From positions 91,186-155,185 of the forward strand of contig JAXLUK010000005.1 of assembly GCA_046329555.1 (NCBI GenBank): 64,000 bases of DNA, given 5' to 3'. The notes beneath the pieces are model-generated. The model was given only the letters and a program-made list of their open reading frames with translations, had not been told where the DNA came from and did not search any database. This stretch comes from Chitinophagales bacterium (lineage in GTDB: Bacteria; Bacteroidota; Bacteroidia; Chitinophagales; LD1). The stretch's first letter is position 1; the number at the start of each line of letters is the position of its first letter. Position numbers and translations under genes: made by a program. Of this stretch, positions 4,345 through 54,320 are shown in pieces.

Positions 4345-6714
4345 ATGCGACCACTACTACTTACGTTATTATTCGGGGCAACCAGTTTGTTTTTACGTGC
4401 CCAAACGGGCCTGATGCAAACGGTTCGGGGTACGGTTACCGACAAGGTAAGCGAACAGCCGTTAATTGGTGCCAATGTGATTCTTCAAGGCAGCAATCCC
4501 ATCCTCGGCGCTACGACCAATGAAAAAGGTGTTTTTGAGTTACAGGCGCCGCTAGGTCGCCATTCCTTTTTGATTCAATATATCGGCTACAAGCCCGCTA
4601 CCATTCCCGAAGTACTGATTACGGCTGGAAAGCAAGTTCAACTGGATGTAACTATGGAAGAAAATGTAACGGAGATGAAGGATGTGGTGGTGCGCGCCAC
4701 CGCGCAAAAAGAGCGACCGCAAAATGAATACAGCGCGGTAAGTGCAAGAACTTTCAGTATGGAAGAAGTAACGCGTTACAGCGGCGGAAGGAATGATGTA
4801 GGCCGCCTGGTGACCAATTTCGCCGGTGTTTCTACGTCGAACGATTCGCGCAATGATATTGTGGTGCGCGGCAATTCGCCCAGTGGTGTGTTGTGGCGGC
4901 TGGAAGGGGTACCTATTCCTAACCCGAATCACTTTGCCACGCTGGGCACCTCAGGTGGCCCGGTGAGTGCGGTGAACACCAATTTGCTACGCAACAGTGA
5001 TTTTATGACCGGCGCCTTTGCCGCCGAATACGGCAACGCCAACTCCAGTGTTTTTGATTTAGGATTCAGAAGTGGTAACACGCAAAAGCATGAATTCATG
5101 TTTCAACTGGCGGCGTTCAGTGGATTTGAGCTGATGGCGGAAGGGCCGGTTAACAAGGCGAAAACGGGGAGTTATGTAGTAGCCGCACGATATTCTTTCG
5201 CGGGTATTGGTGCTGCGCTGCACATTCCTATCGGTACGGCTGCGGCGCCGCATTACACGGATTTAAGTTTTAAAATTGATTTACCGCAAACCCGGAAATC
5301 AGGCAAGTTTTCACTTTTCGGTATCGGTGCTTATTCCTTCATTGATTTTATTGGGAAGAAGTTAACGTCAGAAGATCTGTTTGCCGATCCGTATAGCGAC
5401 CGATATCCGCGCAGCGCCTTTGGTGTGCTGGGGGTTCGGCACAACATCTCGTTAGGAGAAAAAGCCTATGTAAAAACTACGCTGAGCGCCTCTTTTGAAC
5501 ATGCGCGTTTTGATCAGTACGATTATCCCGATAGTGTAACCCGTTTGCAGACCATCAAAAACCGCGACTACACCGCAGCGCTTCGTTTGAATTCATTTTA
5601 CAACAGAAAATTCAATGCGCAATTGTCGATGCGCGCAGGAGCAACTATTGAAGCGTTCTATCTGCGAAATTTTCTGCAATCGCGCACCGAGACACCGGTA
5701 TGGATAGATGTGCGTAATCACAGCGGCTTGCTGGGGTTGATACAGCCATATGCGCAATTGCAATATAAAATCACGGAAAAGTTTACGTTGAATGCCGGTT
5801 TACACGGCACCTGGTTAACGCTGAATAACTCATGGAGTTTAGAGCCGCGCGCTTCAGTGGCCTGGCGCTTTTTGCCCGGGCAATCACTCACGCTGGCTTA
5901 CGGCTGGCATTCACAAAACCAACCCTTACCAGTATATTTTTATCAGGCTCGCCAAAGCGATGGCTCCTACAACACCAGCAACCGCGATTTAGGATTCACC
6001 CGAGCCCATCATCTGGTGCTTGCGTATGATGTGAAATTCAAGAACGACTGGCGCATTAAAGTGGAACCGTATATTCAGTTTATTACGAATGCGCCGGTTG
6101 AGCGCACGGCTTCATCGTTCAGCATGCTGAACGCCGGGGCAGATTTTGTGTATCCCGATCGCGGCTTTCTGGTAAACAAGGGCGTTGGAAGAAACATGGG
6201 TGTTGAACTGACCCTGGAGAAGTTTTTCAGCAAAGGTTATTATGGTTTGCTTACCGTAAGTGTTTTCGACAGTAAGTACAAGGGCAGCGATAATGTTTGG
6301 CGCAACACTACGTTCAACAACCGGTACGTAGTGAATTTTCTGGCAGGAAAGGAATTCCGCGTTGGTAAAGATAAGCGCCATGCCATTACAACCGATTTGA
6401 AGTTTACTACCAGTGGCGGGCGTTGGTATACGCCAGTAGATTTGGCGGCCAGCACTGTAGCGGGAAAGGAAGTTTTGGATGAGGCGCAGGCGTTCAGTAA
6501 GCAGTACAAATACTACTTACGACTGGATTTGAAACTGGGGTTCCGTTTAAACAGCAAGAAGAAAAAAATCAGTAATGCATTCTTTGTTGACTTACAGAAT
6601 CTCACTTTTCAGAAGAACATTTTTGAAAGTCGCTACAATCCGCGCACGCAGCGCATTGACAATGTGTATCAGATTGGCTTTTTCCCGGACCTGATGTATC
6701 GAATTACTTTCTAA
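4345..6714 (+). CDS. TonB-dependent outer-membrane receptor with N-terminal carboxypeptidase-regulatory-like domain
   Basis: Signal peptide; VRGTVTDK..EQPLIGANV domain; plug motif NDIVVRGNSP...WRLEGVPIPNPNHF; C-terminal aromatic YRITF. ATG at 4345 preferred over TTG at 4324. Confidence 0.92.
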   Translation: MRPLLLTLLFGATSLFLRAQTGLMQTVRGTVTDKVSEQPLIGANVILQGSNPILGATTNEKGVFELQAPLGRHSFLIQYIGYKPATIPEVLITAGKQVQLDVTMEENVTEMKDVVVRATAQKERPQNEYSAVSARTFSMEEVTRYSGGRNDVGRLVTNFAGVSTSNDSRNDIVVRGNSPSGVLWRLEGVPIPNPNHFATLGTSGGPVSAVNTNLLRNSDFMTGAFAAEYGNANSSVFDLGFRSGNTQKHEFMFQLAAFSGFELMAEGPVNKAKTGSYVVAARYSFAGIGAALHIPIGTAAAPHYTDLSFKIDLPQTRKSGKFSLFGIGAYSFIDFIGKKLTSEDLFADPYSDRYPRSAFGVLGVRHNISLGEKAYVKTTLSASFEHARFDQYDYPDSVTRLQTIKNRDYTAALRLNSFYNRKFNAQLSMRAGATIEAFYLRNFLQSRTETPVWIDVRNHSGLLGLIQPYAQLQYKITEKFTLNAGLHGTWLTLNNSWSLEPRASVAWRFLPGQSLTLAYGWHSQNQPLPVYFYQARQSDGSYNTSNRDLGFTRAHHLVLAYDVKFKNDWRIKVEPYIQFITNAPVERTASSFSMLNAGADFVYPDRGFLVNKGVGRNMGVELTLEKFFSKGYYGLLTVSVFDSKYKGSDNVWRNTTFNNRYVVNFLAGKEFRVGKDKRHAITTDLKFTTSGGRWYTPVDLAASTVAGKEVLDEAQAFSKQYKYYLRLDLKLGFRLNSKKKKISNAFFVDLQNLTFQKNIFESRYNPRTQRIDNVYQIGFFPDLMYRITF

Positions 6715-8235: not shown

Positions 8236-10140
8236 ATGGAAACAATTTTATATTATGGATGGATACCAGCGCTGATTGTGTGTCTGGTGCTTTACAAATT
8301 TATTCTGCGCGTTTTCTTCGGCATGGTGATTGTGCCTGAAGATAAGATTGGTTTGGTGACGAAGAAATTCGTGTTGTTCGGCGATAAAAAATCGTTGCCC
8401 GACGGGCGCATTATTGCAACCGATGGTGAGGCGGGATTTCAGGCGAAGACGCTGGCTCCGGGTTTGTATTTCGGTATGTGGATCTGGCAATACGATGTAA
8501 CGATGGAAGCCTTCACTGTTATTCCTGAAGGGAAAATTGGATTGTTATTGGCAAAAGACGGCGCAGAGATTCCCACCGGAAGCATTTTGGGTCAGTATGT
8601 AGATTGCGACAACTTTCAGGATGCTGCAAAGTTTCTGGCGAATAAAGGACAGCGCGGACGGCAGGCTGCCTATATCACAGCCGGATCATATCGTATCAAT
8701 ACGCTGTTGTTCCAGGTTTCTACCACCGATATGGTGCGTATTCAGGAAAGTATGGTGGGTATTATTACCACGTTAGACGGACAGCCCATTGAAGCCGGAC
8801 AGATTGCCGGTAAGTTGGTTGAGGGACACAATAACTTTCAGGATTTTGATGCTTTCATCAGGAATGGTGGTAACCGCGGTTTACAGCCGCAAGTTATTCT
8901 TGCAGGTTCTTACAATTTGAATCCGTGGGCAGTGCAAATTGAAGAAACGCCAATGACCGAAATTCCAATTGGTTTTATGGGTGTAGTGATTTCTTATGTT
9001 GGACAGGAAGGACATGATCTTACCGGCGCTGATTTTAAACACGGCAATATTGTTGAAAAGGGATTTAAGGGCGTTTGGCTGGAACCGCTGGGTCCGGGCA
9101 AGTATCCCATTAACAAGTACACGATGAAAGTAGAATTAGTGCCCACTACTAATTTGGTGTTGAACTGGGCATCGGCGCGCAGCGAGGCGCATAATCTGGA
9201 TAAAAACCTTTCTACCATTACCGTTCGTTCGAAGGACGGGTTCCCGTTCAATCTGGATGTAGCGCAGATTATTCACGTGCCCACTACAGAAGCACCGAAG
9301 GTAATTGCGCGATTTGGCAATATGGTGAACCTGGTGTCGCAGGTGCTGGAACCTACTATTGGTAACTATTTTAGAAACTCGGCGCAAGACAGCGACGTGA
9401 TTGCGTTCTTATCTACCCGTAAAGAGCGTCAGGATTCCGCCAAGGCGCATATTAAGAAGGTGCTGGATGAATACAATGTGAATGCCGTGGATACGCTGAT
9501 AGGCGATATCGTTCCACCGGAATCATTGATGAAAACCCTTACGGACAGGAAGATTGCCGAAGAGCAAAAAGTGACTTACGAAACTCAGAAGAAAGCGCAG
9601 GAAACCCGTCAGGGCATGGAAAAGGAAACCGCTATTGCTGATATGCAGAAAGACATTGTGAAGGCACAGCAAAGCGTGGAGATTGCCGAGCGCACGGCTA
9701 ATGCCACGGTGAAGAAAGCCGAAGGTGATGCCGCCGGAGTGAAGTTGGCTGTTGGCGCCGAAGCGGAAGCTACCAAGCTGCGCGCTTATGCCGAGGCAGA
9801 GTCCACCAAGGCGCGTGCGCAAGCCGATTCAGAGGCTATCAAGCTAAAGGCTTCAGCAGAAGCAGAACAGATTTCCTTAACGGGTACGGCAGAAGCCGGA
9901 AAAATTCTGGCCATAGGTAAATCAACGGCTGAGGCCTATGAGTTGGCGGTTAAAGCAATTGGCGGCGAAAACTTCACGAAGTATAAAATTACTGAGGAGC
10001 TGGCTAAGGGCAATGTGAAATTAATTCCGGATGTATTCATTAATGGCGGCGGCAGTGGTAATGCTATGGACGGACTTTTAGGTTTGAAGCTGATGGAGAT
10101 GATGGGCCCGAAGAAGGAAAGCGCTGAGGGCGAAAAATAG
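8236..10140 (+). CDS. SPFH/flotillin-family membrane protein (YqiK-like)
   Basis: N-terminal TM, repeated GxRGxQ...PG.Y segments, band-7 domain (RSKDGFPFNLDV) and an Ala/Glu-rich flotillin coiled coil. Confidence 0.9.
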   Translation: METILYYGWIPALIVCLVLYKFILRVFFGMVIVPEDKIGLVTKKFVLFGDKKSLPDGRIIATDGEAGFQAKTLAPGLYFGMWIWQYDVTMEAFTVIPEGKIGLLLAKDGAEIPTGSILGQYVDCDNFQDAAKFLANKGQRGRQAAYITAGSYRINTLLFQVSTTDMVRIQESMVGIITTLDGQPIEAGQIAGKLVEGHNNFQDFDAFIRNGGNRGLQPQVILAGSYNLNPWAVQIEETPMTEIPIGFMGVVISYVGQEGHDLTGADFKHGNIVEKGFKGVWLEPLGPGKYPINKYTMKVELVPTTNLVLNWASARSEAHNLDKNLSTITVRSKDGFPFNLDVAQIIHVPTTEAPKVIARFGNMVNLVSQVLEPTIGNYFRNSAQDSDVIAFLSTRKERQDSAKAHIKKVLDEYNVNAVDTLIGDIVPPESLMKTLTDRKIAEEQKVTYETQKKAQETRQGMEKETAIADMQKDIVKAQQSVEIAERTANATVKKAEGDAAGVKLAVGAEAEATKLRAYAEAESTKARAQADSEAIKLKASAEAEQISLTGTAEAGKILAIGKSTAEAYELAVKAIGGENFTKYKITEELAKGNVKLIPDVFINGGGSGNAMDGLLGLKLMEMMGPKKESAEGEK

Positions 10141-13224: not shown

Positions 13225-13249
13225 CATTTGTTTAAGCGCGGAAGTTTAC

Positions 13250-13410
13250 ACGCAAAGAGCGCAGAGGATATTCACGCAAAGAGCGCAATGGTTTATACGC
13301 AAAGGGCGCAAAGGATATAAACGCAGAGAGCGCGAAGGATATACACGCAAAGTACGCAGAGGATGTACACGCAAAGAGCGCAATGGTTTATACGCAAAGA
13401 ACGCAAAGGA
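13250..13410 (+). repeat. Tandem repeat, 7 units of 23-24 bp, core ACGCAAAGAGCGCA(A/G)AGG
   Basis: Units start at 13250, 13274, 13297, 13321, 13345, 13369 and 13392. Confidence 0.95.
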
Positions 13411-17173: not shown

Positions 17174-17197
17174 ACAGCTATAGAACAAAATAGTAAT

Positions 17198-17228
17198 CCG
17201 GTGGCCCATGGTCTCCGGATTTTTTATT
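17198..17228. terminator. Putative terminator between icd and the convergent ArsR gene
   Basis: atccgg...ccggat stem followed by a T-run. Confidence 0.55.
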
Positions 17229-17565
17229 GCAGCACTATGGGGATGTTTTGTTGCAAGATCAGTTTATGGGCAATGAATAGATGGAACTGGCGCAGCTTGG
17301 TTAACGTTAATTCGTTAAGCTGGAAGTGCAGCAGTTTATCTTTTTCAAAGCAATAAAGCAGCTCCGCTGCTTTCATTTCATCAATATGCTGCCAGATGGT
17401 AGCAGAAGCCAAAGGGATAGCGTCAAGAATATGCACATAGCTGATGGTTTTATTTTCCAGCAGCAGATTAATAATTTCGAGACGTGCCGGGTGGCCAAAC
17501 GCCCGGGAAATGGCGGCAATTTCATTTTGCGCCGAGGGGAAGAGGTGTGTTTTTCGGGTGCCCAT
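17224..17565 (-). CDS. ArsR/SmtB-family winged-helix regulator lacking the usual Cys motif
   Basis: MGTRKT..F...QNEIA..SRAFGHPARLEII and LPLA-like IPLASATIWQH match the Bacteroidota ArsR pattern as I recall it; KTISYVHI replaces the C(I/V)CGD segment. ATG at 17565. Confidence 0.82.
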   Translation of the reverse strand: MGTRKTHLFPSAQNEIAAISRAFGHPARLEIINLLLENKTISYVHILDAIPLASATIWQHIDEMKAAELLYCFEKDKLLHFQLNELTLTKLRQFHLFIAHKLILQQNIPIVLQ

Positions 17566-17678
17566 AGATGAACGGATGAGCCACAAAATTATTGGTTAAG
17601 GGAAAACCACGTATTAAGTTTTGTTAAATAGTTATCCTTAAGCTATTTATCGATTGACATGAGCCTTCGTCTCCGCAT

Positions 17679-17854
17679 ATCGTATTATTGCGATAGTACG
17701 ATTCGATTAGCCAAAACCCGCACCACTGCTTGTTTACCGTACTATTGCGATTTTACGATTTAGGCTGAAACCCGCGCCACCGCTTGTTTACCGTACTATT
17801 GCGATTCTACGATTTGGCCGAAACCCGCATGAATGCTTATCGTAATATTGCGAT
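17679..17854 (+). repeat. Four-unit array of an ATCGYAATATTRCGAT-like palindromic motif upstream of the ArsR-family gene
   Basis: Motifs at 17679, 17736, 17790 and 17839 (spacing 57, 54, 49 bp). Same units as the arrays at 39.7-40.4 kb and 45.7-46.2 kb. Confidence 0.92.
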
Positions 17855-17943
17855 ACGACAAAAAAAGGGTAACCGGAAAACGCTAACACCCCAAAACTCG
17901 AATTAATCACCGGCGGCATGCACCTGTAAATAACATTATTGAT

Positions 17944-18164
17944 GGCGGCCGCCGCGCCCGCCTGCGTACCTTGGCGGGGTGCGGCGCCAGGTGCTCCACT
18001 CCCAAGGTTTTTTGGGTGGCGGCGGCGGCGGAAGACTTACGATATTTCAAACCGTATTTACCCCATGAAGGGCTATTTACTACAATATCGTAAGTCTCGC
18101 TCGCCGCTCCCCAAAAAACGCTTTCCGTTTCGCCCCTTGCCGCATTTTAGGAACCACTGCGCCA
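17944..18164 (+). repeat. Partial copy of the mosaic element's terminal hairpin module
   Basis: Close match to 45421-45660 (ggcggccgccgcg..., ctccactcccaagg, gacttacgatatt...aatatcgtaagtc); the first hairpin is half deleted. Confidence 0.93.
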
Positions 18165-18290
18165 GGCTCAAAAAATGGTGGAAATGCCCGATAATAAGTT
18201 TCAAATTGCTTCGCCCGATTTACCGCCATACGGCTATTTCCTCTAGTTCCAATTTTCAAACTAAGCCTTAGCTTTGCCGAAAACTCAGGA

Positions 18291-39477: not shown

Positions 39478-40695
39478 GATGATTATGGCGGCTGCGGCAG
39501 CAGGCGCGAAAGTTGCAGCGGCCGCCTGCTGCCGCACCGCGCTTTTCACTTCAAGTCCTCACGCCGGCCGCAACTGCATCTCTCTTGACGGCTCCATTTG
39601 AAGACATCGTAAGTCTTTAAGACTTACGATGTCTTCAGGCCGGCGCTGCGGGCTTTTCGTTGCAATCGCTGCCGCTCGGCGCAAATACTTCGGGGCCACA
39701 ACCAAAACAATCATGACCATCCAGCGCCTTAAATCGTAAAATCGCAATAATACGGCAAGCAAGCAGTAGCAAGGGTTCCAGCCTAATTTTGTTTAAAGCT
39801 CAAAACCTTAAATAGGCAACTGCCTTTGCTCGACCCCCATAGAGGTCGCATCCCTGTAGCACCGAGATTCATCGAATCGTAAAATCGCAATAATACGATA
39901 AGCAATGGCGCGGGTTCCAGCCGATGCCACCCCCAAATCGTAATATTACGACAAGCATTCATGCGGGTTTTGGCCAAATCGTAGAATCGCAATAGTACGG
40001 TAACCCAGCAATGGCGAGGGTTTTAGCCTAAATCGTAAAATCGCAATAGTACGGTAAACGTGCCGTGACGAGGGTTTCAGGCCAGGTTGTCCTTTACCGC
40101 AAATCATTAAATACAGATACGCCTTTCGATACCGACCCCGTAGGGGTCGCATCCCTGTAGCACCGAGATTCAGCAATTCGTAAAATCGCAAAAATACGAT
40201 AAGCAATAGCGCGGGTTTCAGGCGATGTCACCCCCAAATCGTAATATTACGATAAGCATTCATGCGGGTTTTGGCCAAATCGTAGAATCGCAATAGTACG
40301 GTAACCCAGCAATGACGCGGGTTTTAGCATCTATCGTAAAATCGCAATAGTACGGTAAACGTGCCGTGACGAGGGTTTCGGCGCATCGGTAAATCTGAAA
40401 TGCATACCCAAGCGCAGCAGTTTTCAATTTACCACCTACCATTTGCCCTATCTTGTGGCGCAGTGGCCCTTAAATCGCGGCAAGGGGCGAAACGGAAAGC
40501 GTTTTTTGGGGCGGCGGCGTAAGACTTACGATATTGTAGTAAATAGCCCTTCATGGGGTAAATACGGTTTGAAATATCGTAAGTCTAGCTCGCCGCCCCC
40601 AAAAAACCTTGGGAGTGGAGCACCTGGCGCCGCACCCGCCTGCGTACACCCGCCTCAACTCAAACACCCGGTACGCAGGCGGCGCGGCGGCCGCC
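39478..40695 (-). mobile_element. Non-coding mosaic repeat element (BIME/MITE-like), copy 1, 1218 bp, 9 operator-like units
   Basis: Inverted homologue of 45421-46498. Motifs at 39741, 39884, 39937, 39986, 40040, 40185, 40238, 40287 and 40341; perfect 39-bp palindrome at 39599-39637. Mobility is inferred. Confidence 0.8.
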
Positions 40696-45420: not shown

Positions 45421-46498
45421 GGCGGCCGCCGCGCCGCCTGCGTACCGGGTGTTTGAGTTGAGGCGGGTGTACGCAGGCGGGTGCGGCGCCAGGTGCTCCA
45501 CTCCCAAGGTTTTTTGGGGCGGCGAGCTAGACTTACGATATTTCAAACCGTATTTACCCCATGAAGGGCTATTTACTACAATATCGTAAGTCTTACACCG
45601 CCGCCCCAAAAAACGCTTTCCGTTTCGCCCCTTGCCGCGATTTAAGGGCCACTGCGCCACAAGATAGGGCAAATGGTAGGTGGTAAATTGAAAACTGCTG
45701 CGCTTGGGTATGCATTTCAGATTTACCGATGCGCCGAAACCCTCGCCACGGCTTGTTTACCGTACTATTGCGATTTTACGATAGATGCTGAAACCCGCGT
45801 CATTGCTGGGTTACCGTACTATTGCGATTCTACGATTTGGCCAAAACCCGCATGAATGCTTATCGTAATATTACGATTTGGGGGTGGCATTGGCTGGAAC
45901 CCGCACCATTGCTTATCGTATTATTGCGATTTTACGATTTGCTGAATCTCGGTGCTACAGGGATGCGACCCCTATGGGGTCGGTATCGAAAGGCGTATCT
46001 GTATTTAATGATTTGCGGTAAAGGACAATCTGGCCTGAAGCCCTCGTCACGGCACGTTTACCGTACTATTGCGATTTTACGATTTAGGCTGAAACCCGCG
46101 TCATTGCTGGGTTACCGTACTATTGCGATTCTACGATTTGGCCGAAACCCGCATGAATGCTTGTCGTAATATTACGATTTGGGGGTGGCATCGGCTGGAA
46201 CCCGCGCCATTGCTTGCTTGCCGTACTATTGCGATTTTACGATTTAAGGCGCTGGATGGTCATGATTGTTTTGGTTGTGGCCCCGAAGTATTTGCGCTGA
46301 GCGGCAGCGATTGCAACGAAAAGCCCGCAGCGCCGGCCTGAGGACATCGTAAGTCTTTAAGACTTACGATGTCTTCAAAGGGAGCCGTCAAGAGAGATGC
46401 CGTTGCGGCCGGCGTGAGGACTTGAAGTGAAAAGCGCGGTGCGGTAGCAGGCGGCCGCTGCAACTGATGCGCCTGCTGCCGCAGCCGCCAAAATCATC
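45421..46498 (+). mobile_element. Non-coding mosaic repeat element, copy 2, 1078 bp, 8 operator-like units
   Basis: Motifs at 45759, 45813, 45862, 45915, 46060, 46114, 46163 and 46220; terminal hairpin modules; near-perfect palindrome at 46339-46377. Confidence 0.8.
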
Positions 46499-50860: not shown

Positions 50861-52360
50861 TTACGGCTCCAAAACACATTTGAACACCTTCTGGTAACCA
50901 TTCCCCGCATTGACCTTTATTAGGTAATGGCCCACAACCAGCCCATTCAAATCGCAGTTAATATTCCCACTCTTACCCATCCCAACATACATTTTTAATC
51001 GGCGCTCTTCCAGGTCAAATACACTGATGGTAAAGTTGGTTTCGCTATTGAATAGATAATTGAATTGGGCATCTCCGCGAATCGGATTTTCAACTAAGCG
51101 AAAAAATTGTGGCTCGCTTTTTTGGGTCTCAGCAATGTTCGTGGTAAAAGTTGTATCGCAGCCACTGCCAATTAGCTTGCCGGTTTTGTAGGATGGCAGA
51201 TTGGGAAGTGGATAGGTTTGATGCAGCAAGGGTATGGCCATGGGTTCATACCGGCAGGCCAGGCCAGGGCTATCCGGCGCATGAATAACATGCAGCTTAC
51301 TTGTTAAATCCCAGGTATCGTAATAGATTTCGCCAAAAGGAGTTAACAATCCATGGCCGATTGGATTAGGTTGCCCATCGTAGGTAGCCGAGTCCCATTT
51401 ACAAATCAGTATCGCAGAACTAAGGATATCGGGGGCCTGTAAATCATACTGTCGAATAGTCCAGTAATTATTAACGTACAAATATCTGCCGGAAGGAGAG
51501 AACACGCTGGAAAGCGCCCCTGTAATCCCTGCAGGCACAACCAAAGTATCACCATGAGGGCCAATGAACGGAGGGGTAAATTGGGTGACTCCTGTAAACA
51601 CGCCTTCACAGCGATCAAAATCCAAAATATTTATGGGTACATGAACTGTGCTAAAAACGTATTTATCGCCCTGCTCTGAGAATTTCGCATAACCATATCC
51701 TTCTCCCAAAATGGAATCGCCGATTACCTGGGTTTTCATTAGCCGAATCGTATCGGGGGTAACTAAAAAAATAAAGTATTTATTGTTGTAGCCTTCTTTT
51801 TGCACCAGCCACCAATCGCGGCCGTTGCCATGCCTTGTGGCGGTAATGTTTCTGGAAGTAGGTGCGTAGTTAATGCGGTTTCTTTTCGACTTAAGCACAT
51901 AACCATTGTTTTGGCGTTGCACTACGGCATAGTACAAAACGGTTTGTAAAGTATCGTGTTTCTGATGAAAATCCTCATCGCTAACGGAGGGATATACCAA
52001 ATAGAATTCGTTAGAATTCTTTGGGAGAAAAATAGAATTCTGAACGCCCTGATTGTTATGCGGGAAATACACAGCAAATGCCGTATCGGTTAAGGGGTAG
52101 GCATTGGCTAAGGTGTCAAAATTATCTGTTACAATATGTTGCCCTTCCGAGTATAGGGTGCGGGCAGTAACAGAATCGTATATGCTTGCTGCCGTCCCAA
52201 TGGCAAACAAAGGGAGATATGGCGGATTGGTAACTTGCGGTGGATTAGAAGAAAAGGTTAACGAACTAAAAAATGAGGCAACCGGCCATTTATAATCAAA
52301 TTGACCAAAAACGCTTAGGGAAACTCCCATAAAAAGCAATACCCCCAAAAGCCGATGCAT
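50861..52360 (-). CDS. T9SS cargo beta-propeller-like protein, copy A1 (original CTD)
   Basis: Signal peptide, RHGNGRDWWL, FSPSGRYLYV, PDSPGLAC and LPNLPSY motifs; CTD RLVENPIRG...GHYLIKV. Confidence 0.88.
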   Translation of the reverse strand: MHRLLGVLLFMGVSLSVFGQFDYKWPVASFFSSLTFSSNPPQVTNPPYLPLFAIGTAASIYDSVTARTLYSEGQHIVTDNFDTLANAYPLTDTAFAVYFPHNNQGVQNSIFLPKNSNEFYLVYPSVSDEDFHQKHDTLQTVLYYAVVQRQNNGYVLKSKRNRINYAPTSRNITATRHGNGRDWWLVQKEGYNNKYFIFLVTPDTIRLMKTQVIGDSILGEGYGYAKFSEQGDKYVFSTVHVPINILDFDRCEGVFTGVTQFTPPFIGPHGDTLVVPAGITGALSSVFSPSGRYLYVNNYWTIRQYDLQAPDILSSAILICKWDSATYDGQPNPIGHGLLTPFGEIYYDTWDLTSKLHVIHAPDSPGLACRYEPMAIPLLHQTYPLPNLPSYKTGKLIGSGCDTTFTTNIAETQKSEPQFFRLVENPIRGDAQFNYLFNSETNFTISVFDLEERRLKMYVGMGKSGNINCDLNGLVVGHYLIKVNAGNGYQKVFKCVLEP

Positions 52361-54087
52361 AACTAAGGGATTAAAGTGAACTTAATCATATCAACCGCTC
52401 CGCTACCGTAGGTAGCTTTAATCAGGTAATTGCCTGAGCTGAGGTCGCCGATATCCCAAAATAGATTTCCTTCCAACCCGTGATTTTGGTAGTGCCTTAA
52501 AGGCCTGCCTTGCAGATCAATTACATCGATTTTGTATTCCATGGCACAAGTAAATTTATAAGCAATATTTAACTGGCCGTGTACTGGATTTTCAACTAAG
52601 CGAAAAAATTGTGGTTCGCTTTTTTGGGCCTCAGCAATGTTCGTGGTAAAAGTTGTATCGCAGCCACTGCCAATTAGCTTGCCGGTTTTGTAGGATGGCA
52701 GATTGGGAAGTGGATAGGTTTGATGCAGCAAGGGTATGGCCATGGGTTCATACCGGCAGGCCAGGCCAGGGCTATCCGGCGCATGAATAACATGCAGCTT
52801 ACTTGTTAAATCCCAGGTATCGTAATAGATTTCGCCAAAAGGAGTTAACAATCCATGGCCGATTGGATTAGGTTGCCCATCGTAGGTAGCCGAGTCCCAT
52901 TTACAAATCAGTATCGCAGAACTAAGGATATCGGGGGCCTGTAAATCATACTGTCGAATAGTCCAGTAATTATTAACGTACAAATATCTGCCGGAAGGAG
53001 AGAACACGCTGGAAAGCGCCCCTGTGATCCCTGCAGCTAAGGCCAGGGTATCACCATGAGGGCCAATGAACGGAGGGGTAAATTGGGTGACTCCTGTAAA
53101 CACGCCTTCACAGCGATCAAAATCCAAAATATTTATGGGCACATCAACCGTACTAAAAACGTATTTATCGCCCTGCTCTGAGAATTTCGCATAACCATAT
53201 CCTTCTCCCAAAATGGAATCGCCGATTACCTGGGTTTTCATTAGCCGAATCGTATCGGGGGTAACTAAAAAAATAAAGTATTTATTGTTGTAGCCTTCTT
53301 TTTGCACCAGCCACCAATCGCGGCCGTTGCCATGCCTTGTGGCTATTATGTTTCTGGAAGTAGGTGCGTAGTTAATGCGGTTTCTTTTCGACTTAAGCAC
53401 ATAACCATTGTTTTGGCGTTGCACTACGGCATAGTACAAAACGGTTTGTAAAGTATCGTGTTTCTTATGAAAATCCTCATCGCTAACGGAGGGATATACC
53501 AAATAGAATTCGTTAGAATTCTTTGGGAGAAAAATAGAATTCTGAACGCCCTGATTGTTATGCGGGAAATACACAGCAAATGCCGTATCGGTTAAGGGGT
53601 AGGCATTGGCTAAGGTGTCAAAATTATCTGTTACAATATGTTGTCCTTCCGAGTATAGGGTGCGGGCAGTAACGGAATCGTATATGCTTGCTGCCGTTCC
53701 AATAGCATACAAAGGGGGATGAGGCTGATAGGTAATTTGCGGCGGATTAGAAGAAAAGGTTAACGAACTAAAAAATGAGGCAACCGGCCATTTATAATCA
53801 AATTGACCAAAAACGCTAAGGGAAACTCCCATAAAAAGCAATACCCCCAAAAGCCGATGCATAACTAAGGGATTAAAGTGAACTTAATCATATCAACCGC
53901 TCCGCTACCGTAGGTAGCTTTAATCAGGTAATTGCCTGAGCTGAGGTCGCCGATATCCCAAATTAGATTTCCTTCCAACCCGTGATTTTGGTAGTGCCTT
54001 AAAGGCCTGCCTTGCAGATCAACTACATCGATTTTGTATTCCATGGCACAAGTAAATTTATAAGCAATATTTAACTGGCCGTGTACT
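51084..54087. repeat. 1502-bp direct tandem duplication
   Basis: The 19-mer ggattttcaactaagcgaa recurs at 51084, 52586 and 54088; the intervening units are nearly identical. Confidence 0.97.
52363..53862 (-). CDS. T9SS cargo protein, copy A2 (chimeric: A body plus CTD of the upstream gene)
   Basis: Same body as 50861-52360, but the CTD after RLVENP matches 53865-54087 with 2 substitutions. Confidence 0.88.
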   Translation of the reverse strand: MHRLLGVLLFMGVSLSVFGQFDYKWPVASFFSSLTFSSNPPQITYQPHPPLYAIGTAASIYDSVTARTLYSEGQHIVTDNFDTLANAYPLTDTAFAVYFPHNNQGVQNSIFLPKNSNEFYLVYPSVSDEDFHKKHDTLQTVLYYAVVQRQNNGYVLKSKRNRINYAPTSRNIIATRHGNGRDWWLVQKEGYNNKYFIFLVTPDTIRLMKTQVIGDSILGEGYGYAKFSEQGDKYVFSTVDVPINILDFDRCEGVFTGVTQFTPPFIGPHGDTLALAAGITGALSSVFSPSGRYLYVNNYWTIRQYDLQAPDILSSAILICKWDSATYDGQPNPIGHGLLTPFGEIYYDTWDLTSKLHVIHAPDSPGLACRYEPMAIPLLHQTYPLPNLPSYKTGKLIGSGCDTTFTTNIAEAQKSEPQFFRLVENPVHGQLNIAYKFTCAMEYKIDVIDLQGRPLRHYQNHGLEGNLFWDIGDLSSGNYLIKATYGSGAVDMIKFTLIP

Positions 54088-54320
54088 GGATTTTCAACTA
54101 AGCGAATGGCATTATGCCGGGTGAGTTGCGCCATTGGCTCTACATCCTCATCGGGCGCACTGTTCTTGTAATAATTCAGAGAAGAGCATAATTCTTTGTC
54201 ATCCACAAAAAAGCTATCGTTATAAAGTGCATAAAGGCCGCGTGCGCGAAAAACTGCCGGGCCCTTTATTATTCCAAAATTAAATCGGCGCTCAACACAT
54301 CGATATAAAGATATTAAAAT
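53865..54320 (-). pseudogene. 5'-truncated remnant of a T9SS cargo gene
   Basis: Frame is open from a stop at 54321-54323 with no ATG before the conserved GPAVFRARGLY...DDKELC pre-CTD motif; no signal peptide; CTD intact. Confidence 0.7.

Follow-up and report, generated by a model that had tools for sequence, protein, structure and literature searches.

On balance, we read the ArsR-type protein encoded in the 64,000-nucleotide stretch of DNA analysed here (the window) as an intact, fast-diverged and effector-blind member of the Bacteroidota ArsR lineage (MGxxK...HPAR...), placed in a subgroup with a TIWQH recognition helix, in a genome where a mosaic repeat has multiplied the operator of that lineage. 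Judging from the loci compared, this operator, ATYGYAATATTRCRAT, stands once or twice in front of arsR in the lineage. Here a mosaic non-coding repeat appears to have carried it to ~108 boxes in 11 intergenic arrays, one of which lies against the putative promoter region of the ArsR-type gene.

The gene is present in the list of open reading frames as 17224-17586 on the minus strand, and translation almost certainly begins from the ATG at 17565, because every member of the lineage begins MGxxK. An AlphaFold2 model of the protein, computed from a 17-sequence alignment, has a pLDDT of 91.4 and the ArsR/SmtB topology, with its elements in the order H-H-H-H-E-E-H. The top 35 Foldseek matches in the PDB are all ArsR/SmtB proteins (TM 0.6-0.8), the best being SrnR, an RHA1 ArsR-family protein, CadC, HlyU, CzrA, the As(III)-ArsR structures 6J05 and 6J0E, PagR and NolR. 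The ArsR/SmtB membership proposed in the original prediction is therefore borne out by the fold, although the family HMMs score the protein below their curated cut-offs (29.9 bits against 55 for NF033788 and 21.3 against 21.9 for Pfam HTH_24, with no HTH_5 match in the HMM search), and by this measure its sequence is very divergent. A word-based homologue search returned no sequence beyond the protein itself. An exhaustive search of 1.84 billion representative proteins gave a best relative of 42% identity and only seven relatives at E<=1e-10, with 497 library matches at E<=1e-3, and the only identical copies come from two metagenome runs of the same strain. All 11 lineage-invariant columns of the alignment are nonetheless kept (M1, G2, K5, H25, A27, R28, I31, P51, L52, T56 and H60). 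An open frame, intact invariant residues and a confidently predicted fold at such divergence argue for selection and not decay; on the same three observations we reject a pseudogene, the decaying state named in the original prediction. The base composition of the gene matches that of the genome (GC 0.45, GC3 0.53, similar to the neighbouring core genes), which rules out recent horizontal transfer as the cause of its divergence.

The canonical As(III)-responsive ArsR proteins of Bacteroidota, encoded in arsR-arsM-arsC and arsR-DUF6428 operons and with AfArsR and CgArsR (PDB 6J05 and 6J0E) as solved relatives, share with the window protein the signature MGxxK..., HPAR and PL..T..QH, the predicted fold and the 16-bp box. 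Against these proteins, to which it is 33-40% identical, the window protein falls in the separate TIWQH subgroup and lacks CxC, CYC and the C-terminal CC: the alignment sets TIS against CxC in alpha3 and HFQ against CYC, in agreement with the earlier observation that KTISYVHI stands in place of CxCGD. The earlier description of the protein as Cys-less holds for all six canonical sensor positions and fails when taken strictly, as a single cysteine, C71 (LLYCFEK), lies in the wing region at a non-sensor position. Such loss is not unusual: 24 of 139 clusters in the lineage are without the alpha3 cysteines. The neighbours of the gene are icd (convergent), ribF (divergent) and dnaB, with no ars or metal-efflux genes beside it, as had been noted, and the absence of ars genes extends to the genome as a whole: tblastn found no ArsM, LMW-PTP ArsC or DUF6428 in the 100%-complete assembly, and neither Acr3 nor ArsB was found there. 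With the As(III)-ligand cysteines absent and no ars genes in the genome, the proposed loss of arsenic sensing stands. The protein is also the sole, and best, match to its lineage in its own genome.

HlyU provides a precedent for an ArsR fold that has no metal site and is used for other regulation (PMC1665450). HlyU (Vibrio), NolR (Sinorhizobium) and PagR (B. anthracis), ArsR folds without metal sites that are among the top structure and sequence matches of the window protein, differ from it in having defined regulons and ordinary single operators. We know of no genome-wide site amplification for any of the three.

The box itself can be traced through the relatives. ATYGYAATATTRCRAT sits 2-25 bp before the arsR start codon at at least 15 loci and in about 20 related genomes (in the reading by locus, ATYGYAATATTGCRAT, 2-25 bp upstream of the arsR ATG in at least 15 loci), so that the Bacteroidota arsR box given in the original prediction is found where it was said to be. 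Across 40 relatives the box pattern occurs 0-5 times per genome, and in ~20 of them a match lies directly beside a tblastn match of an ArsR homologue. The loci hold a canonical arsR (CxCGD, CC tail) heading arsR-arsM-arsC or arsR-DUF6428 operons. Five loci from the same genus or family (L013, L014, L016, L017 and L018) carry a pair of boxes separated by 365-380 bp, the first ahead of arsR and the second in the interval from arsR to arsM. The array box and the operator of the same-genus arsR genes are identical at 16 of 16 positions. Unlike the canonical arsR genes, the window gene has no box 2-25 bp before its ATG, the nearest lying about 113-114 bp away within the repeat. No operator box overlaps the -7 match TAATTTTG at 17584..17591, and the gene does not have the arrangement of an autoregulated repressor, in which the operator would overlap the repressor's own promoter or follow closely behind it.

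A closer link between protein and arrays comes from its subgroup. In a maximum-likelihood tree, the protein groups with P0003, P0006 and P0015 (support 91/89), separately from the genus's own arsR, and no TIWQH-type orthologue was found in the genus. Its terminal branch is very long (1.8 against a median of 0.58); the placement is therefore tentative, and specificity may have drifted. The three uncharacterised proteins, its sister group in the tree and 31-38% identical to it, share with it the unusual recognition helix S(R/A)ATIWQH, and the window protein keeps T56, H60 and the near-invariant Q59 in this helix. They differ from it in keeping one or two cysteines in the alpha3 segment and in lying within a small operon, where a single operator cluster stands 25-40 bp from the ATG. 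The genes for P0003, P0006 and P0015 have rhodanese and OsmC genes as neighbours. At loci L040-L045, genes of the TIWQH-helix subgroup directly follow rhodanese, OsmC and YgaP-like genes, a context that suggests a sulfur or redox regulon and not arsenic.

Upstream of P0003, P0006 and P0015, the box occurs 25-40 bp from the ATG as runs of tandem 8-bp half-sites, gACGTAAT-ATTGCGAT-ATTGCAAT-ATTGCAAT and TTCGTAAT-ATTGCAAT-ATTGCAAA-ATTGCAAA, and the motif that was to be sought upstream of homologues is thus present even in the nearest subgroup. These operators resemble the array units, the commonest of which have the same left-right-right (L-R-R) layout, ACCGTACT-ATTGCGAT-TYTACGAT. This half-site layout, common to the TIWQH operators and the array units, is the most specific evidence tying the protein to the arrays. 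It also weighs on a reading that we consider very unlikely, in which the specificity of the protein has changed (S to W in the recognition helix, long branch) or it has another target, and its place beside an array is coincidental. The long terminal branch, the HMM scores under the family cut-offs, the lack of a box at the usual operator position and the frequency of sensor-less members in the lineage, presumably with their own regulons, all fit a changed specificity, but the other TIWQH-helix proteins still have the box upstream of their genes, T56, Q59 and H60 are kept, and outside the arrays there is no consensus box for the protein to use. In addition, with 11 arrays in roughly 3000 intergenic regions, the chance of an array falling in the 5' region of a given gene is ~0.4-0.8%, as estimated from the array count.

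The four 16-bp boxes upstream of the gene have exactly the sequences quoted in the original prediction and lie at the predicted distances from the ATG at 17565 (Table 1). The repeat similarity begins at about 17675, and the 109 bp between there and the ATG are unique in the genome: the four boxes are one copy of the mosaic repeat, present at 10 other loci, and not a private operator of the ArsR-type gene, contrary to the earlier view of them as its own operator array. The count of 21 matches to the box pattern in the window (<=1 mismatch, against 0 expected by chance) was reproduced; it corresponds to 19 distinct sites, because two perfect palindromes were counted on both strands. On the far side of the repeat copy, a -7-like box, TAGCTTTG, just precedes ribF, and the mosaic element would therefore stand upstream of both divergent promoters.

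Table 1. Elements of the ArsR-type locus and of the box-bearing repeats in the window, with the box types
Feature	Position	Strand	Remarks
Sensor-less ArsR-lineage winged-helix coding sequence	17224..17565	-	113 aa; ATG 17565; stop codon 17224-17226
Leader/promoter region of 109 bp without a box	17566..17674	-	Unique in the genome; operator position in relatives
TAATTTTG, match to the Bacteroidota -7 promoter consensus TAnnTTTG	17584..17591	-	18 nt before the ATG; putative promoter element
Mini-array of four box-bearing repeat units	17675..17863	+	Boxes 114-289 bp from the ATG
Box 1	17679-94		One mismatch to the operator consensus
Box 2	17736-51		Two mismatches to the operator consensus
Box 3	17790-05		Two mismatches to the operator consensus
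Box 4	17839-54		Perfect match to the operator consensus
GC-rich segment and long-hairpin module (module Y) of the same mosaic repeat	17939..18165	+	From repeat-family comparison
TAGCTTTG, -7-like box just before ribF	18269..18276	+	ribF start 18291; putative promoter element
Mosaic element of 1.2 kb with box arrays	39478..40695	-	Left arm of the inverted pair
Mosaic element of 1.1 kb with box arrays	45421..46498	+	Right arm of the inverted pair
Box, p-type			ATCGTAATATTACGAT
Box, t-type			ATCGTATTATTGCGAT
Box, a-type L-R-R unit			ACCGTACTATTGCGATTYTACGAT

Between the convergent icd and ArsR-like genes (17197-17227 of the window), an imperfect GC-rich hairpin, CCGGTGGCC-CAT-GGTCTCCGG, is followed by a T-run and is probably the shared terminator of the two genes; a terminator scan gave no call. 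In the closest genome (G010), icd is still beside ribF, and the slot between them is filled by an unrelated 127-aa open reading frame. Neither an empty site nor an insertion boundary was recovered in G010, where synteny is broken at the loci compared, including the ppk2 neighbourhood. Elsewhere in the window, a 24/47-bp tandem repeat (TACACGCAAAGAGCGCAAAGGATA, about seven copies) occupies an intergenic region at 13244-13410, and a 1502-bp tandem duplication (98% identical over 300 nt) at 51075-54106 spans two adjacent 499-aa open reading frames.

Across the whole genome, the box pattern gives 132 matches in 11 arrays and one isolated single match. The arrays hold ~108 boxes within two mismatches of the operator consensus, of which 20 are perfect, 36 have one mismatch and 52 have two. 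Outside the arrays there is no perfect box and one with a single mismatch, leaving the arrays with 20/20 of the perfect and 36/37 of the one-mismatch boxes, and the genome is therefore without an ordinary single-copy operator. About half of the array boxes (those of the ACCGTACT... type) differ at two positions that are invariant in the genuine operators sampled. All 11 arrays are intergenic and are built of 53-54-bp units with a 301-bp higher-order repeat, within composite elements 0.5-1.4 kb long; in the 53-bp unit, conservation is strongest over the box and TYTACGATTT. Two further modules belong to the mosaic, module X (205 bp, with a palindrome) and module Y (170 bp, with a long hairpin), and both are also present on their own, without boxes, at more than 25 further sites. 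The genes beside one array are unrelated to those beside another, and a search of the other arrays found no remnants of the ArsR-type gene. Derivation of the array flanks from the ars promoters of relatives is ruled out, as the similarity is confined to the 16-18-bp box.

This architecture gives substance to the main rival of our reading, in which the arrays represent a MITE-like repeat with minisatellites, selfish or neutral in nature, that was seeded from an ArsR operator or converged on one, the ArsR-type protein is a leftover, and any binding is incidental and of no benefit. The element is modular, with X and Y spreading independently of the boxes, and therefore repeat dynamics alone can explain the amplification; the arrays are found only in this genome (1 of 401 of the order), which suggests recent expansion; and 10 of the 11 arrays, all but the ArsR-adjacent one, have unrelated neighbours. 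There is also a precedent in BrickBuilt of Porphyromonas gingivalis, an intergenic MITE with an internal minisatellite (Klein et al. 2015, PMC4596501). The arrays resemble BrickBuilt in being species-restricted, strictly intergenic and modular, with internal tandem units at about 10-20 loci, and by their multiple copies, intergenic position and internal tandem units they are candidate members of its class. Unlike BrickBuilt, however, the tandem unit here carries a recognisable transcription-factor operator, and the only factor of the cognate type is encoded beside one of the copies, a candidate pairing. We hold a purely selfish or neutral repeat to be unlikely. The gene is intact with every invariant residue kept at <=42% identity, which speaks for DNA binding being still under selection; conservation within the unit is highest in the box; and box arrays recur with different flanks in another organism.

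A pair of inverted arms, 1.1-1.2 kb long and 95-100% identical (Table 1), flanks a 4.7-kb block of core genes (ppk2, recO-like, lysR, a second icd-like gene and a small membrane protein), and this block could be invertible. REP/BIME clusters, which carry protein-binding sites, are likewise species-restricted, intergenic and modular elements with internal tandem units. It could be argued that the arrays act through DNA structure or another factor, such as REP/BIME-like hairpins, a recombinase or transposase, or a nucleoid protein, and that their likeness to an ArsR operator is irrelevant. The long perfect palindromes and hairpin modules within the composite elements are in keeping with such a role, as are the 1.2-kb inverted copies around the 4.7-kb block. 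We regard it as a remote prospect in view of the 16/16 identity to the same-genus arsR operator and the confinement of the likeness with the relatives' ars promoters to the box, which leaves a protein-binding site as the shared feature. Moreover, a search of the whole window against Rfam returned no family, and the region is therefore not a known RNA.

Apart from one isolated match, the repeat unit is absent from 185,579 species genomes, and of 401 genomes sampled from the order, this one alone has box pairs at the array spacing, the other 400 having none; confinement on this scale suggests that the expansion is recent. Within the genome, arrays lie only on C4 (615-772 kb), C7, C8 and C11, the last of which ends inside an array, and C1, C5 and C6 (2.2 Mb with small contigs) are free of them, a distribution with a chance of ~6e-6 under uniform placement. 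GC skew switches on C6 only and does not place the arrays relative to origin or terminus.

Scanning metagenomes also yielded box arrays from a distant, Bacteroidota-like organism of low GC content, 36% (Ga0209512, contigs _1000002 and _1000048), at 4940-5300 on the minus strand of locus L056 and 9480-10060 on the plus strand of L055, on contigs of 1.02 Mb and 313 kb. The tandem 56-bp units there combine a box, AACGTAATATTGCGAT, with a ATTGCAAT half-site, and this looks like an independent ArsR-box array; because the sequence between its boxes is unrelated to that of the present genome, it is the box that recurs and not its surroundings. A 2.8-kb contig (Ga0209450; L057, 1800-2090) holds ~22 head-to-tail copies of the 13-bp CGTATTATTGCGA, the core of the box, without spacer.

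On a further reading, in which the arrays are confined to part of the chromosome and similar ones arose independently in a distant Bacteroidota lineage, the sensor-less ArsR and its more than 100 boxes would form a dedicated, effector-independent DNA-docking system that silences the repeat or organises a chromosome domain, in the manner of MatP/matS or ParB/parS or of a repressor tamed to silence a repeat. We consider a dedicated system of this kind quite unlikely. The arrays that titrate or dock one protein, namely the P1 incA iterons with RepA, F sopC with SopB and E. coli datA with DnaA, are comparable in having a tandem palindromic or iterated site for one DNA-binding protein, and offer an analogue for a sponge or docking role. 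They differ in serving replication or partition, usually from a single locus; here, 11 chromosomal loci and an ArsR-type protein are involved, and the role is putative.

Returning to the reading that we favour, of an effector-blind ArsR protein whose lineage operator was multiplied by a repeat, we infer both the binding of the protein to the arrays and any benefit to the cell from sequence comparison. Binding to the array boxes is plausible, and likely because the helix residues are kept, the operator layout is shared with the subgroup, the protein is the sole member of its lineage in the genome, and the chance of its adjacency to an array is ~0.4%. Having no As(III)-ligand cysteines, and with no ars genes in the genome, the protein would most likely sit on the boxes permanently, as a dimer, and higher-order complexes of it may arise on the L-R-R half-site units. 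Titration of the protein, local repression or insulation at the arrays, or both, would be likely consequences; what this might do for the cell, whether by titration, silencing or insulation, or DNA organisation, is speculative.

Bacterial transcription-factor sites are normally single and local. In this genome, the only regulator of its type has lost its ligand sensor, and a repeat element has made more than 100 copies of the regulator's operator. A further outcome of the analysis is an operator for the Bacteroidota ArsR lineage that is verified by comparison. To our knowledge, the repeat-driven spread of transcription-factor sites, well known in eukaryotes, is hardly documented in bacteria. 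The locus would thus represent a natural case of such spread, and its arrays may be a natural decoy or sponge.
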